64,000 nucleotides of DNA from Methyloligella sp. (GCA_021604645.1 BQJJ01000003.1:176551-240550); one strand, 5' to 3'. Counted from the stretch's first letter, positions 29,780-37,073 are shown. Notes: generated by a model from the sequence alone, not told the origin. Made by a program: numbers and translations.

Positions 29780-32056
29780 TTATTGCCAAAAATTGAATTC
29801 GATATTCTCTGGTGCGAGGCAGACTTGGTCGCTGCAGGCTTGTAGCTTTAAAGCGATTTTGTTTGCGACTTGTTGTTGGTTTTTGGGAAAGTCTGTCATG
29901 ATTGTTTTTTCTCCTTCATAGAGTGAGAGTTTCTCTTTATTGAAGGAGAGGGATTTTATTTTAGGTTTTGGAAATTCTTTCGCTTCGATCTTTTGACCAT
30001 TTATTGTTATTTGAGTTGGAATTAAATAGTCTTCTAATGGAGCATTTGAATTGATATGCCAGCCAGGACGTATGGTGATAGTGAGTGTTACTCCCTTAGT
30101 CTCTCTATTTAATTTAAGAGCAACTTTTACATTTCCCTTTGCTGTGTCTCGAATAAACCCGGTGTTGCCATTGCTCGCAGCGTTAACAGCGTTTACCAAA
30201 ACACCTCTCATTTGTGGGTTGCTCAGAGCATGGCCTGAGAGCGCAGAGGCGAGTAAAAGGCTTTTCTTTTTTTGTTCAGAATTGCCATTTTTTTCTGCCA
30301 GTGCATGTAATAATTTCAAGGCAAGCGCGTTGCCTGATGGGATTGGATTGTCATCAAGGGGCGGGAAGGTGCCGATGCCATCTTGCGTTTCTGTCATACG
30401 GTATGGAGTGATTTCTTTTGACCATTGGGAGCCAAATCGTAATTGTAATTCATCGGCCAATCTTTGAACCGTTTTCATAGAAGTTTGGTTCTGTTCTCCT
30501 GATGGTTTGTATGTTTCAAGTGCGAGTAATGCTAATCCAAGCCCTGCGTAATCGGCTAACTGACCGTCAATTCCTATGTTTCCTTTATAGCTTGCGCGAT
30601 AGAGGCGATCTTTTTTAAGCATGTTTTGTGTGATGTAGTTAGCTGCTTTTTTTGCGGCCGTATAATAATTTTCTCGCTCTAGGATGTATGAGGCATGGGC
30701 CAGGGCTTCTATCATCATGGCATTCCAGGATACTATTATTTTTTTATCTTTGTGGGGGGGATTTCTTTTTTCTCGGGCTTGTCTTAATTGTTCAAGTTCA
30801 CCCTTTAATTTCTCATAATAGATTTGTTCGTTTAGTTTTAGTGATTTTGCGATGTCTGCTGGTAGTTGTTCTAAATGCAGAATATTTTTTCCCTCAAAGT
30901 TTCCGTTGTTAGTTAGTGGAAATGTTTTGAGAAGGACAGATGTTTTTGAATTGTAGAATTCCTCAATTTCCTGTTTTGACCAGATGTAGAAAGCACCTTC
31001 AATTTTTTTGCCGTTTTCATCTATGGAGTCTGCGTCTTCAGCTGAGTAGAAGCCGCCGTTCTTGTCTTGCATATCTCGGAGAACATAATCGAATAACCGA
31101 ATGGCTGTTTGTTTGTATCTCTCTTTTCCGGTTAGGGCATAGGTTCTTACAAGAAGGTTTCCGATTAAAGCCTGGTTGTAGAGCATTTTTTCAAAGTGAG
31201 GAACGAGCCAGCGTTCATCAACGCTATAGCGGTGAAAGCCTCCACCTACATGGTCATGTATGCCACCTTTGATCATGCCGTCTAATGCGGCCATTGCGGT
31301 GAATAATGCGGTGTTATCTCCTCTCTCAGCTTGATCCAGAAGAAATGACAGGGCTGATTCTTGAGGGAATTTAGGAGCAACTCCAAAGCCACCGTTAAAT
31401 TCGTCTTTGTTTTTGGTTGTCATTTGCATGGCTTCAGAAATGACTTCTGGCGTTATATTTCGTACCCCTTCAGTTCGGTTCATGTAGCGGTTTATACCAT
31501 CTGCGACCTGCTTGCCTTGTTCAATGAGTGTTGTTTGTTCGGTTTTCCAGAGTTTTACAATATGTTTTAGGGTGCTTAGGAATTGGTCTGGGGGGAGGTA
31601 AGTGGAGGCATGGAATGGTTTTGCATTTGCTGTGAGGAAAACTGAATTGGGCCAGCCGCCTGTGCCTGTCATAGCTTCGGTTACAAGCATAAACTGGCTG
31701 TCGAGGTCAGGGCGTTGCTCTCTGTCTACTTTGATGGAGATGAAATGTTCGTTTAGATATTTTCCAATTTCTTCATTTTCAAAACTTTCGCGGGCCATGA
31801 CGTGACACCAATGACAGGTTGAGTAACCAACAGAGAGAAAGATCGGTTTGTTTTCTGCCTTTGCTTTTTTTAAAGCTTCTTCACCCCAAGGGTACCAGTT
31901 AACTGTGTTGTAGAGATGTTGTAGAAGATAGGGGGATTGGGAGCCGAGTAGTTTGTTGGCAGTTTGTTTTTTGGTTTCTGTTTTTTCAGCTGCTGCGTAT
32001 GAATGACTAAAAAGAATATATAAACAAGTAATAGATATTTGAATGAATAACTTCAT
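29780..32056 (-). CDS. Secreted YyaL/SSP411-like thioredoxin-domain protein with C-terminal DsbD-N-like domain (probable ATG 32056)
   Basis: [36 protein letters not shown]; C-terminal PGWHINSN...[11 protein letters not shown]. Confidence 0.88.
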
Positions 32057-32178
32057 CGCACCCTCACGCATCAGAAATTTATTTTGATTTTCCTTTTATG
32101 CTAATTGATGTTCTGGTTTGGCTACAATCAAATTATCGCGAGGAATTGATCTGTATCTTTTCATTGAAACCTCTTTAT

Positions 32179-32208
32179 AAAAAAAAGACCTCATAATTTA
32201 TGAGGTCT
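32179..32208 (-). terminator. Terminator of the globin/multiheme operon
   Basis: AGACCTCATAA-x-TTATGAGGTCT followed by a T-run on the minus strand. Confidence 0.75.
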
Positions 32209-32306: not shown

Positions 32307-32759
32307 TTAAGTTCCGAATAATTTTCCAAAAAATCCTTTTTTAGATTTAGACGCTTCTGCGGCCGCGTCTTTCATGACGGTTGCCAATGTGCCGTAGGTA
32401 GTGACCCAGGCGTCTTTTACTTCTGGTGTGAAGTCGTCTTTTAATCCTTCTTGCAAAGTCCAGATTAAGGCTTCACCCACTTTGTCGTAGTGCTCATCTT
32501 TTACACCGTAATCAACATGTTTCGCTCCAAGTGTTTTTACTGGCTCGATGATTTGTTCGATTTGGTGAAGATTATTTACCGCGGTTCCTAGCATAGACAT
32601 AAGTTTGTCGCGCTGGTCTGTGATATTATCTGCAAACATTGGGCGGACTTCCGGGGCGATTTCGAAAAGTCTGCCGTAAAATAAATCGCCTGCTGTTGAA
32701 GCGATTGGTTCAACTTTTTTAAATGAAGATTGAACCAGCTCAACTTGTTCTGGTGTCAT
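32307..32759 (-). CDS. Single-domain globin (FHb/Vitreoscilla type) with C-terminal amphipathic tail
   Basis: LFYGRLF (TyrB10), DQRDKL (GlnE7), GAKHVDYGV (HisF8), HYDKVGEAL; tail KKGFFGKLFGT. Confidence 0.92.
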   Translation of the reverse strand: MTPEQVELVQSSFKKVEPIASTAGDLFYGRLFEIAPEVRPMFADNITDQRDKLMSMLGTAVNNLHQIEQIIEPVKTLGAKHVDYGVKDEHYDKVGEALIWTLQEGLKDDFTPEVKDAWVTTYGTLATVMKDAAAEASKSKKGFFGKLFGT

Positions 32760-32837: not shown

Positions 32838-33425
32838 TTATTTAAGCGGAATACGGATAACTACACCGCCCATGACATCACCCATTTTGAAATCCTTTTT
32901 AGGTGTGTCTTTGTGATTGTTGTGACAACCAACACATGGTGTTGCGACTGCCACGTCTGCGTAAACAGCGGTGAAATATTTTTTGCCACCTAAGGTTTCT
33001 TCGCCGTAGAAATTTTTGCCTTTGTTAGCGTTGATATATTCAAGGCCTTTTTTCTCCAGCTCTGTTGTTGGTTTGTTTTGTTTGTTAATGGGCCATAGAG
33101 AAAGAAGAGAATAAGAGAATTTATCGGTTTTATCCGCTACTGCTTCTGCACCGAAGCGGAACATTTGAGCAGGTAGTGGCAAGGATTTATCATCCTCAAA
33201 GGATTCTGTGGCTTTGATCACTTTGTGCTTGTTAGCTAAACGCTTTACGACTTTTTTGGTGTAGATGGTTCTGTCTGATTCAAGGACCAGGTGCAGCATG
33301 TCTGTGACTTGTTGAGGTTCAAAGGTTTTAGCTGTTGCTGGGGCTGACATTGCCATGCCAAGCATGAGGCTACCGGTAGCAATTGAAAGAGCCGTTTTTT
33401 TCAATGATGTTTTAAAGTTCAACAT
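32838..33425 (-). CDS. Periplasmic DUF3365 (Tll0287-like) monoheme c protein
   Basis: Signal peptide; LSLWPINKQNKP; PCVGCH heme motif; GDVMGGVVIRIP. Confidence 0.85.
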   Translation of the reverse strand: MLNFKTSLKKTALSIATGSLMLGMAMSAPATAKTFEPQQVTDMLHLVLESDRTIYTKKVVKRLANKHKVIKATESFEDDKSLPLPAQMFRFGAEAVADKTDKFSYSLLSLWPINKQNKPTTELEKKGLEYINANKGKNFYGEETLGGKKYFTAVYADVAVATPCVGCHNNHKDTPKKDFKMGDVMGGVVIRIPLK

Positions 33426-34930: not shown

Positions 34931-36940
34931 TTAATAATAATAGACGGTTAGAATATGAAGGGCTAACAAGACAGGTAGTGGCCAGAAGGTAATGATATGT
35001 AGCCAGAATGTTATTTTTGCTGGTGCTTCATTATTCAAACGCATGCCTTTTTCTAACAAACGATGTTCTCCTGCTTTTAAGAGACCTGTTAATGCCCCTG
35101 TTAATCCAAGAGCGATGAAACTGAGCATCAACCAGAAATTTAAATTTTCACCCAGATGAAACCCAGTATGAAGAAACAGAATAAACGCAGCTAAAAGACC
35201 AATGATGATGTGAAATGCGCGCCAGCCTGAATAAGCTCCGAAGGAGAGGAACTTTATATTCTTTCGTAATGATAGAATGGCGGCGATGACTGATAGTCCA
35301 AGAAGTGTAAACCCGCTGACTTGTTTATAATACCCATCTGTCCAGAGCATATCGATTGTGAAATCTGGAATGACACTGTCTCTAGCTGGGAGGCCTGGGG
35401 CGATGAGTGTGATGAGTGCTGCCAGTAATGCTAACGCAGAGCCAATGAGAACCGGTTTGATCCATTCAATTGGTTCATATTTGGGTTTTCCTGCAAGTAA
35501 TTCGTGAATGAGGGGTTTGCAACTGCCGCAAACGGTTGAACAGCTTGTTTCTCTCTTTACTGCATCAAAGGTGACGCAACCTTGTGAGATGGCGTCCCCG
35601 ATTTGTCCGCGGGTAACGCCCGTGCAGTTGCAAACTGTAGCAGCAGCTGGCCAATCAGTGACACTTTGTGGTTTCTTTTGAGAAAATAGAAAACCTGATT
35701 TTTGAAAACTTAGTTTTTGCCAAGGCCATATGAATTTTTGTTGGACGATTGCATTTTGAAGAACATTGATTTCTGGCCAGTCACCGATTGCCATGGCGCC
35801 TACCAGACGATTTTTTTGTAAAATTAAACGACGATAGATGGCTTTTTCTGAATTTTGATAGGTAATTGTGTTGATATCAATTCGCTCTGCGAGTTGTTCT
35901 ACATCTCCCATTGAGAAAACATCTGAACCGACGACTTTTAACTTTGTTGTTGGTAAAGATCCGGAGTAACTTTCTGTTTTACCTATGATATTGTTAACGG
36001 CTATGGTCGCTTGTTCGAGCCCCGGACCTACTAGTCCGTAAGTGTTGCCATTATATTCAGCGCATTCCCCAATAGCGTAAATGTCTTCCTCGGAGGTTTG
36101 CATGTTTTGATTAACAGTAATGGCACGGCTAACAGAAAGGCCTGCATCTCGTACCATTTCCATATTTGCTCTAATACCTGTGCAAACTATTAAGGTATCG
36201 CACTCAATATTTTCTCCACTTGAAAGTGTGATACCCTCTACCCTGTCTGTCCCGTTTATTTTTTTAACGGATAGACCCGTTTTTACGGTTAGACCCAGTG
36301 CTTCTATTTGCGATGCCAGGAGAGCGCCTGCCCCTTCGTCTAATTGGCGCGCCATTAGTCTGGTTTCGTGCTCAACTACGATGGTTTCTATTTTTCTGTT
36401 GGCCATACCACGAGCTGCTTCTAGACCTAGGAGCCCGCCGCCGATTACAACACAGCGCCTTGCTGATATGCTTCTTGCGACTAGTTTTTCAACGTCATCA
36501 AAGTTTCTAAATTTAAAAACACCATCAAGTTCAATGCCTGGTATTGCTGGAATGTGTGCCCTTGACCCTGTTGCTAATATAAGTTTGCTATAAGAGAAGC
36601 GTCGATCGAATTGACCGATGACTTGTTTGTTTTCTGTATCTATTCCAACAATTGGATGAGATGTGTATTGTTTTACATTTGCATCTTTTGGTAAGTTTGG
36701 TTCTAGATAAACCTGTCCGACTTGAACATCTCCTGAGAGGAGGGGGGTCAGCTTTACTCTATTGTAAGGCTGCCAACGTTCTGCATTAAAAATTATGACT
36801 GGGACATCATTTGCCGATAGGCATTCAGCTGCACGTATCCCTGCTGGCCCGCCACCGATTACAACAACCGGGTTCAGTTTTGTATCCAGAACGGTAGACG
36901 AGTTTTTACAATCAGAATTTTTCTGATCTTTCAGCAGCAT
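34931..36940 (-). CDS. NirB-like NAD(P)H/FAD oxidoreductase plus BFD [2Fe-2S] plus 5-TM di-heme-b domain (probable ATG 36940)
   Basis: GGGPAG and GGGLLGLE dinucleotide motifs, IYAIGEC; VCNC...CGSC; two H-x13-H pairs on TM3 and TM5; SD AGAGGGG. Confidence 0.85.
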   Translation of the reverse strand: MLLKDQKNSDCKNSSTVLDTKLNPVVVIGGGPAGIRAAECLSANDVPVIIFNAERWQPYNRVKLTPLLSGDVQVGQVYLEPNLPKDANVKQYTSHPIVGIDTENKQVIGQFDRRFSYSKLILATGSRAHIPAIPGIELDGVFKFRNFDDVEKLVARSISARRCVVIGGGLLGLEAARGMANRKIETIVVEHETRLMARQLDEGAGALLASQIEALGLTVKTGLSVKKINGTDRVEGITLSSGENIECDTLIVCTGIRANMEMVRDAGLSVSRAITVNQNMQTSEEDIYAIGECAEYNGNTYGLVGPGLEQATIAVNNIIGKTESYSGSLPTTKLKVVGSDVFSMGDVEQLAERIDINTITYQNSEKAIYRRLILQKNRLVGAMAIGDWPEINVLQNAIVQQKFIWPWQKLSFQKSGFLFSQKKPQSVTDWPAAATVCNCTGVTRGQIGDAISQGCVTFDAVKRETSCSTVCGSCKPLIHELLAGKPKYEPIEWIKPVLIGSALALLAALITLIAPGLPARDSVIPDFTIDMLWTDGYYKQVSGFTLLGLSVIAAILSLRKNIKFLSFGAYSGWRAFHIIIGLLAAFILFLHTGFHLGENLNFWLMLSFIALGLTGALTGLLKAGEHRLLEKGMRLNNEAPAKITFWLHIITFWPLPVLLALHILTVYYY

Positions 36941-37073
36941 GTGACCCCCTCTGATAAGCCTCCATTGCATAATTTGTTGGAGTACTTATTCATTGGTTGC
37001 TCAAACATGAATGAAAGAGCTGTTGTCTTTCTTTCATGCATGTTTGATGCATTTTTAATTTTTCTTAATTAAA

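Follow-up and report, generated by a model that had tools for sequence, protein, structure and literature searches.

Genes at the globin locus

The gene on which this analysis centres encodes a single-domain globin and is the last of four co-oriented genes, separated by gaps of 14, 63 and 78 nt, in a 64,000-nucleotide stretch of Methyloligella sp. DNA (hereafter, the window). In module order, the products are a NirB-like FAD/[2Fe-2S] protein, an 11-haem cytochrome c, a Tll0287-like haem-c protein and the globin:

34931..36970, minus strand: NirB-N-terminal-like FAD/NAD(P)H oxidoreductase with a BFD-type [2Fe-2S] domain, 679 aa
33489..34916, minus strand: multihaem cytochrome c, 475 aa, with ten CxxCH motifs plus CASSGCH
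32838..33425, minus strand: Tll0287-like (DUF3365) protein, PF11845 at 76.6 bits, with one CxxCH motif (CVGCH at residue 164)
32307..32759, minus strand: globin, the sole ORF there; 150 aa, single-domain M-family globin
32186..32208, minus strand: intrinsic terminator-like hairpin and T-run (10-bp stem, then TTTTTTTATA), about 100 nt past the globin stop codon

The first product matched Pyr_redox_2 (197.5 bits), Rubredoxin_C and Fer2_BFD in Pfam, and TIGR02374 over model positions 1-468 only. Replacing the sirohaem half of NirB, its C-terminal domain contains six histidines and five predicted transmembrane helices (residues 506-524, 550-568, 588-606, 610-628 and 653-671). This membrane domain gave only sub-threshold Pfam matches, to Ferric_reduct (E = 0.018) and to cytochrome b561 (E = 0.029); we infer that it is di-haem b in nature. 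The multihaem cytochrome has a hydrophobic N-terminus that reads by eye as a signal anchor and that falls below the hydropathy threshold. The N-terminus of the Tll0287-like protein resembles, also by eye, a signal peptide, and the protein is predicted to be periplasmic; a recent preprint attributes redox-related roles to stand-alone Tll0287/DUF3365 members. The layout of the module points to a path leading from NAD(P)H in the cytoplasm to the periplasm; in this scheme, the globin and the NirB-like flavin domain would be the only cytoplasmic parts.

An earlier note on this DNA had assigned the globin to an operon. This proposal was borne out, as the four-gene order is kept in 26 of the 36 loci that we surveyed (see below) and the terminator-like hairpin follows the globin, closing the putative operon. 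Directly downstream of the hairpin (29780-32071, minus strand) lies the gene for a protein of 763 aa, in which a DUF255/thioredoxin domain is combined with a DsbD_N-like C-terminus; this gene adjoins the module in the close relatives L001 and L003 (95% and 72% identity, respectively) but not in more distant loci.

The globin

The ORF translation closes with ...TVMKDAAAEASKSKKGFFGKLFGT, and the C-terminus of the 150-aa protein reads ...AAAEASKSKKGFFGKLFGT-stop. Nucleotides 32307-32345 hold the stop codon (32307-32309) and residues 139-150 (SKKGFFGKLFGT); the lysine before residue 139, which the earlier note had included in its quotation of this segment, lies one codon further, at 32346-32348.

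In Pfam, the protein matched PF00042 (60.5 bits). The flavohaemoglobin model NF009805 gave 78 bits against a cut-off of 432, and since the match is confined to the globin part (model positions 3-143), the protein is devoid of a reductase domain. At only 150 aa, it differs from Hmp, where the globin is fused to an FAD/NAD(P)H ferredoxin-reductase-like domain. Nor does it carry the transmitter domain (MCP, GGDEF or kinase) of a globin-coupled sensor, consisting just of a globin domain and a 19-residue tail. No transmembrane segment was predicted in the globin, and no signal peptide could be read by eye in its N-terminus (MTPEQVELVQ...).

[quoted passage not shown] HGb-I was the best match both by fold and by sequence (E = 6.7e-26). 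Among solved structures, the Methylacidiphilum globins HGbRL and HGb-I are the closest, followed by neuroglobin and Vitreoscilla haemoglobin. The residues lining the haem were placed as follows, with B10, E7 and F8 taken from an ungapped alignment to 3s1i:

32676-32678, minus strand: TyrB10 (Y28)
32613-32615, minus strand: GlnE7 (Q49)
32604-32606, minus strand: LysE10 (K52)
32517-32519, minus strand: HisF8 (H81)

Y28, Q49 and H81 are invariant in the 54 aligned homologues, and K52 is nearly so. HGb-I has the same TyrB10/GlnE7/HisF8 set and a Lys at E10; the Tyr and Gln of 3s1i, numbered one position later than Y28 and Q49, were taken as its B10 and E7. The TyrB10/GlnE7 pair had been read in the earlier note as typical of NO-dioxygenase-type globins that need a reductase. 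The pair is indeed there, but it does not fix the function, since HGb-I possesses it too and yet is described as hexacoordinate.

The genome encodes a second globin, outside the window, with a long acidic/Pro-rich N-terminal extension and without the C-terminal tail described below:

contig C2:236151-236543, minus strand: second globin, 44% identical

A 2,004-bp contig labelled 'uncultured Methyloligella sp.' (L001) encodes a globin 100% identical to that of the window. The G+C content of the genome is only 41.8%, although the nearest named records are Hyphomicrobiales MAGs.

A conserved C-terminal tail

Past the end of helix H, the globin continues with two elements:

32343..32363, minus strand: flexible linker AAEASKS, residues 133-139, joining the end of helix H to the motif
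32313..32342, minus strand: core motif KKGFFGKLFG, residues 140-149; T150 and the stop codon (32307-32312) come after it

Conservation was assessed on the best 120 of roughly 3,700 homologues, which are 62-95% identical to the globin and mostly 149-154 aa long. A C-terminal K-K-G-[FL]-[FL]-[AGS]-[RK]-[MLI]-F-G is present in 114 of these 120, with the residue counts K(110/114)-K(112)-G(110)-[F67/L39]-[F76/L38]-[A83/G16/S14]-[R92/K14]-[M66/L29/I12]-F(108)-G(106). In 105 of 113 homologues, 0-1 residues follow the motif before the stop codon; in the present globin it is one, T150. By comparison, the linker is poorly conserved, being Pro/Ala/Glu/Val-rich and 4-14 aa long (median 6). A conserved peptide on a drifting linker implies a functional terminal motif rather than a chance extension. 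Thus the ORF sequence and the conservation among the best homologues uphold the original observation, namely that the globin ends in a MinD-type tail.

Within the genome, a looser form of the pattern ends five of the six-frame ORFs, and the full KKGFFxKLFG form is found in the globin only. When the wider family was reduced to representatives at 50% identity, the tail occurred in this cluster and in one triple-globin protein only.

A helical-wheel analysis had been proposed as a check on the tail. On such a wheel, an arc of 140 degrees takes in F143, F144, L147 and F148, and the hydrophobic moment (0.33-0.39, versus 0.37-0.43 for real MinD tails) is in keeping with the MinD range; at the same time, it reaches only the 72nd percentile of the genome's C-termini, so that the moment is not diagnostic and cannot carry the argument. 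In the AF2 model, the tail is a helical continuation of helix H with a pLDDT of about 59 and is not packed on the core, as might be expected of a segment that folds on lipid.

Comparison with the membrane anchors of MinD and RocS

The MinD protein of E. coli ends in ...KKGFLKRLFGG. Closer comparisons were provided by the MinD C-termini from three genomes of the same order, EKRGFFGKIFGRKAA, EKKRFFGNLFGRRAA and VKKSLFGGLFRRAA. The first of these (also given as GEKRGFFGKIFGRKAA; EKRGFFGKIFG) equals the globin's SKKGFFGKLFG at 8 of 11 positions, the other three being S/E, K/R and L/I exchanges. When KKGFFGKLFG is set beside the MinD segments KRGFFGKIFG and KKRFFGNLFG, the globin shows the sequence pattern of the anchor. 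Like the globin tail, the MinD anchor is at the extreme C-terminus, spans about 10 residues and follows the scheme [KR][KR]-G/x-hydrophobic-hydrophobic-x-[KR]-hydrophobic-F-G; its net charge (+3 or +4) and hydrophobic moment are similar as well. The carriers differ, however: MinD is a ParA/MinD ATPase, whereas the carrier here is a haem globin without an ATP-driven dimerisation cycle to switch membrane affinity.

MinD itself is scarce in these bacteria. The best TIGR01968 match in this genome scored 66.7 bits against a cut-off of 212.9, none of the 13 other genomes of the genus contained a protein reaching that cut-off, and of 17 other families in the order, only three had a MinD, these having supplied the tails compared above.

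A second parallel is provided by RocS of S. pneumoniae, whose anchor, AKEEVQATKKGFFARLFG(GK), inserts into the bilayer as a 'kink-helix' according to solid-state NMR and MD simulation in a 2026 study (PMC13042908). The authors of that study aligned the RocS anchor with those of MinD (PMC13042908). The RocS core, KKGFFARLFG, is 8/10 identical to the tail of the present globin; the consensus of the globin family is KKGFFARMFG, and two homologues, P0097 and P0110, end in KKGFFARLFG, the exact RocS core. RocS is a DNA-binding chromosome-segregation protein of Firmicutes and has only the anchor module in common with the globin, but it shows that a MinD-type anchor can occur on a protein other than MinD. 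The resemblance to MinD put forward in the earlier note is real, and stronger than could be known there, considering both the same-order MinD C-termini and the RocS anchor. As judged by sequence, the tail belongs to the class of portable lipid-binding anchors.

Co-occurrence of the tail and the module

The survey covered 36 loci, of which 28 came from species genomes and the other 8 from assemblies. The four-gene module accompanied 17 tailed and 9 untailed globins; nine more untailed globins and a single tailed one (L035) had no module nearby. Fisher's exact test on these counts gave p = 0.007, uncorrected for phylogeny. In L035, which lies on a 1.5-Mb contig, the module is absent within 7 kb of the globin. 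Carriers of the module belong to Hyphomicrobiales, Rhodospirillales, Rhodobacterales, Kordiimonas and Sphingomonadaceae, with one Myxococcota genome in addition; Rhodovulum sp. DZ06 (L017) is a cultured carrier. Of the 14 genomes of the genus, 8 encode both the tailed globin and the multihaem cytochrome and the other 6 encode neither, making the four-gene module an accessory unit at this level.

Whether the tail correlates with the operon had been named as a test of the membrane hypothesis, and the outcome was one-sided. The tail is nearly confined to operon-linked globins (17 of the 18 tailed ones), but 9 of the 26 operon-linked globins do without it. Because of these nine, the tail cannot be a requirement for the module; it is a clade-specific accessory of module-linked globins. 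In a tree of the globin cores, the tail changed state at least twice, and since the untailed L014 and L016 nest beside the tailed L013, one of these changes was probably a loss inside the tailed clade.

We looked downstream of the nine untailed module-linked globins for tails cut off by a recent stop codon or frameshift, and three-frame translation disclosed no remnant of the motif. A 37-aa ORF after the L041 globin, considered as a split-off tail, proved to be GC-rich intergenic sequence without the motif.

When 21 of the flavoprotein partners were aligned, no fixed difference separated tailed from untailed loci, and a single gap-status column tracked the tail. Likewise, the partners from L013 (tailed) and L014 (untailed) are 74% identical and contain no distinguishing segment. 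Since no flavoprotein feature follows the tail, a generic lipid target fits better than a dedicated docking groove.

A few peculiarities of individual loci may be recorded here. A gene for a small SoxA/TsdA-like cytochrome c follows the globin in two tailed loci (L038:7518-8003 and L039:7589-8092), and in L038 genes for an MCP and for a CCP/MauG-type di-haem peroxidase also come after the globin; these products may be further redox partners. In the globin gene of a Dehalococcoidia MAG, codon 13 (L024:10037-10039) is an in-frame TGA; the residue at this position is an invariant Phe in the family of the tailed globin and Trp in HGb-I and HGbRL. The TGA may stem from pseudogene formation, from a sequencing error or from recoding.

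Nitrate assimilation genes and the Bjgb-Flp system

In 8 of the 26 module loci, nasTS, nirBD or nasA flank the module. None of them is adjacent to it in the window, the nirBD-nasA genes of this genome being located on another contig (C1). The distribution is uneven: 7 of the 9 untailed modules (L010, L011, L012, L014, L016, L020 and L041) are found among nitrate assimilation genes (nasT, nasS, nirBD, nasA), as opposed to 1 of the 17 tailed ones (L036). The tailed loci in this contrast were L003-L008, L013, L017, L034 and L036-L040. The inverse pattern may reflect phylogeny rather than function, the untailed state occurring in only about three independent lineages.

In Bradyrhizobium, the single-domain haemoglobin Bjgb and a separate flavoprotein, Flp, detoxify the NO made during nitrate assimilation (PMC4724949). 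The arrangement narK-bjgb-flp-nasC (PMC4724949) is similar to that of the module in that a gene for a single-domain haemoglobin stands beside one for a separate FAD/NAD(P)H flavoprotein; in all 26 module loci, the globin is co-located and co-oriented with such a flavoprotein gene. Bjgb-Flp is also tied to nitrate assimilation and to NasST control, just as the module sits among nas genes in eight loci. The nasT-nasS-MFS-globin layout of L015, an untailed relative with 60% identity, recalls the narK-bjgb pair. Given these nas neighbours and the likeness of L015 to narK-bjgb, NO/N-oxide chemistry is the best guess as to function. The split flavohaemoglobin advanced in the earlier note can thus claim a published analogue in Bjgb-Flp. 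The two systems differ, however, in that the flavoprotein of the module has a [2Fe-2S] domain and five predicted membrane helices, the module adds two genes for periplasmic c-type cytochromes, and the globin carries a predicted membrane anchor.

Globins known to associate with lipids or membranes

We know of no link between HGb-I and the four-gene module. The deposited HGb-I chains, 131-139 residues long, align with our globin only up to residue 130-131 of the latter and lack both the linker and the KKGFF tail. HGb-I nevertheless binds lipids, upon which its haem goes from hexa- to pentacoordinate (PMC11203436). By analogy, membrane contact could affect haem reactivity in the present globin too.

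Vertebrate globin X is bound to the membrane through N-terminal acylation. A membrane-bound globin-coupled sensor is known from Geobacter (PMC8076648). Both place a globin at the membrane, but by lipid modification or by integral transmembrane helices, while the anchor considered here is predicted to be a reversible, in-plane amphipathic helix.

Possible functions of the tail

We consider it quite probable, from the conservation of the motif and its similarity to the MinD and RocS anchors, that the tail binds the membrane. The last ten residues, KKGFFGKLFG, borne on a short flexible linker, would act as a MinD/RocS-type amphipathic membrane-targeting sequence that folds against the inner membrane from its cytoplasmic side, burying the four large hydrophobic side chains (F, F, L and F) in the bilayer while the lysines meet the phospholipid head groups. 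In this way, an otherwise soluble, cytoplasmic and reductase-less globin would become a peripheral membrane protein. The membrane surface would then keep it close to the NirB-like FAD/[2Fe-2S] domain, its most likely electron source and presumably the only other part of the module that faces the cytoplasm. Globin and flavoprotein could act as a membrane-assembled counterpart of the split NO-detoxifying Bjgb-Flp haemoglobin system, the same flavoprotein also feeding the periplasmic cytochromes.

The most likely picture is a globin peripherally attached to the inner membrane and kept close to its probable reductase, as a membrane version of the Bjgb-Flp pair. To the reading as a whole (an anchored globin and the module flavoprotein forming a membrane-assembled, split NO-detoxifying pair) we assign a probability of roughly 0.55. 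One step of it is more tentative: that the flavoprotein reduces the globin for NO detoxification, with the anchor holding the globin beside it for NO/O2 chemistry, is plausible but somewhat less likely than not, gene adjacency and the Bjgb-Flp analogy being its only grounds.

The membrane-binding evidence (the conserved motif and the likeness to MinD and RocS) would apply equally if the tail bound the membrane but the globin, instead of being reduced by the operon flavoprotein, served other membrane enzymes as a buffer or carrier of O2 or NO, or acted as a ligand-dependent regulator of the conduit. An O2 buffer/carrier role with terminal oxidases has been proposed for Vitreoscilla haemoglobin, and HGb-I undergoes a lipid-coupled change in haem coordination with no known catalytic role. 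Furthermore, untailed globins function in the same module, so that proximity to the flavoprotein may not be the purpose of the tail. We nonetheless regard this reading as rather unlikely: the strict gene order beside an exposed FAD/[2Fe-2S] flavoprotein, together with the Bjgb-Flp precedent, makes a redox partnership the simpler account; the 150-aa globin has no transmitter or regulatory domain, and no feature of the flavoprotein tracks the tail. For these same reasons (no transmitter domain, no partner feature tracking the tail), the idea in the earlier note of a sensor gating the conduit found no support.

Lipid may not be the target at all. A conserved C-terminal peptide on a flexible linker, restricted to module-linked globins, is also what one would expect of a short linear docking peptide for a protein, be it the cytoplasmic domain of the NirB-like protein or some other partner. 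The near-identity of the tail to the MinD and RocS anchors, whose target is the bilayer, makes this very unlikely, as does the behaviour of the flavoproteins, in which neither the alignment of 21 partners (one gap-status column aside) nor the L013/L014 comparison yielded a residue or segment that sets tailed loci apart from untailed ones. Finally, the low AF2 confidence for the tail, and its loss at least once inside the tailed clade (L014 and L016 next to L013), would be compatible with a tail that has no localisation role, such as a degradation tag, an inherited but neutral extension or a fold-back helix tuning ligand access. This we judge extremely improbable, because a motif conserved position by position at 62-95% identity, beside a freely varying linker, points to selection on the motif itself. 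In addition, AF2 does not pack the tail on the core, and the tail is unlike known C-terminal degrons, the ssrA type of which ends in ...LAA.

Returning to the membrane-anchored globin, a more elaborate version can be envisaged, although we hold it to be quite unlikely, in which docking is itself a switch. Off the membrane, the haem would be hexacoordinate and inactive, its sixth ligand being GlnE7 or the near-invariant LysE10, as in HGbRL and HGb-I; on the bilayer, lipid contact would act as oleate does for HGb-I, opening the haem to a pentacoordinate, ligand-reactive state. A single MinD-type anchor binds weakly, and attachment could accordingly depend on a ligand- or redox-controlled dimerisation. 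The outcome would be a reversible, MinD-like cycle on and off the membrane, with NO/O2 chemistry turned on only next to the reductase.

Implications

Globins held at membranes by other kinds of anchor, and a MinD-type anchor on a non-MinD protein, were both known before; our full-text literature searches retrieved neither a bacterial globin with a MinD-type anchor nor a description of the four-gene module. Bacterial globins of the single-domain kind are generally regarded as soluble, with no known reductase partner. A large and mostly alphaproteobacterial family of them bears a recognisable membrane address and shares a conserved operon with an NAD(P)H flavoprotein integral to the membrane, which puts forward a candidate location as well as a candidate reductase. 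If correct, the interpretation would carry the split flavohaemoglobin idea of Bjgb-Flp over to a pair that assembles on the membrane and is coupled to a trans-membrane electron conduit. The proteins that have acquired the portable MinD-type anchor would then include a redox haem protein. The carriers are organisms common in marine and sediment metagenomes.

The anchor may occur on other globin architectures too. P0126, a 444-aa protein with three tandem globin domains, closes with ...EPKGLFAKLFGIFK, a tail of the same type, and P0261, a single globin of 171 aa, closes with ...KQRSFFGSVAAFLGWSR.
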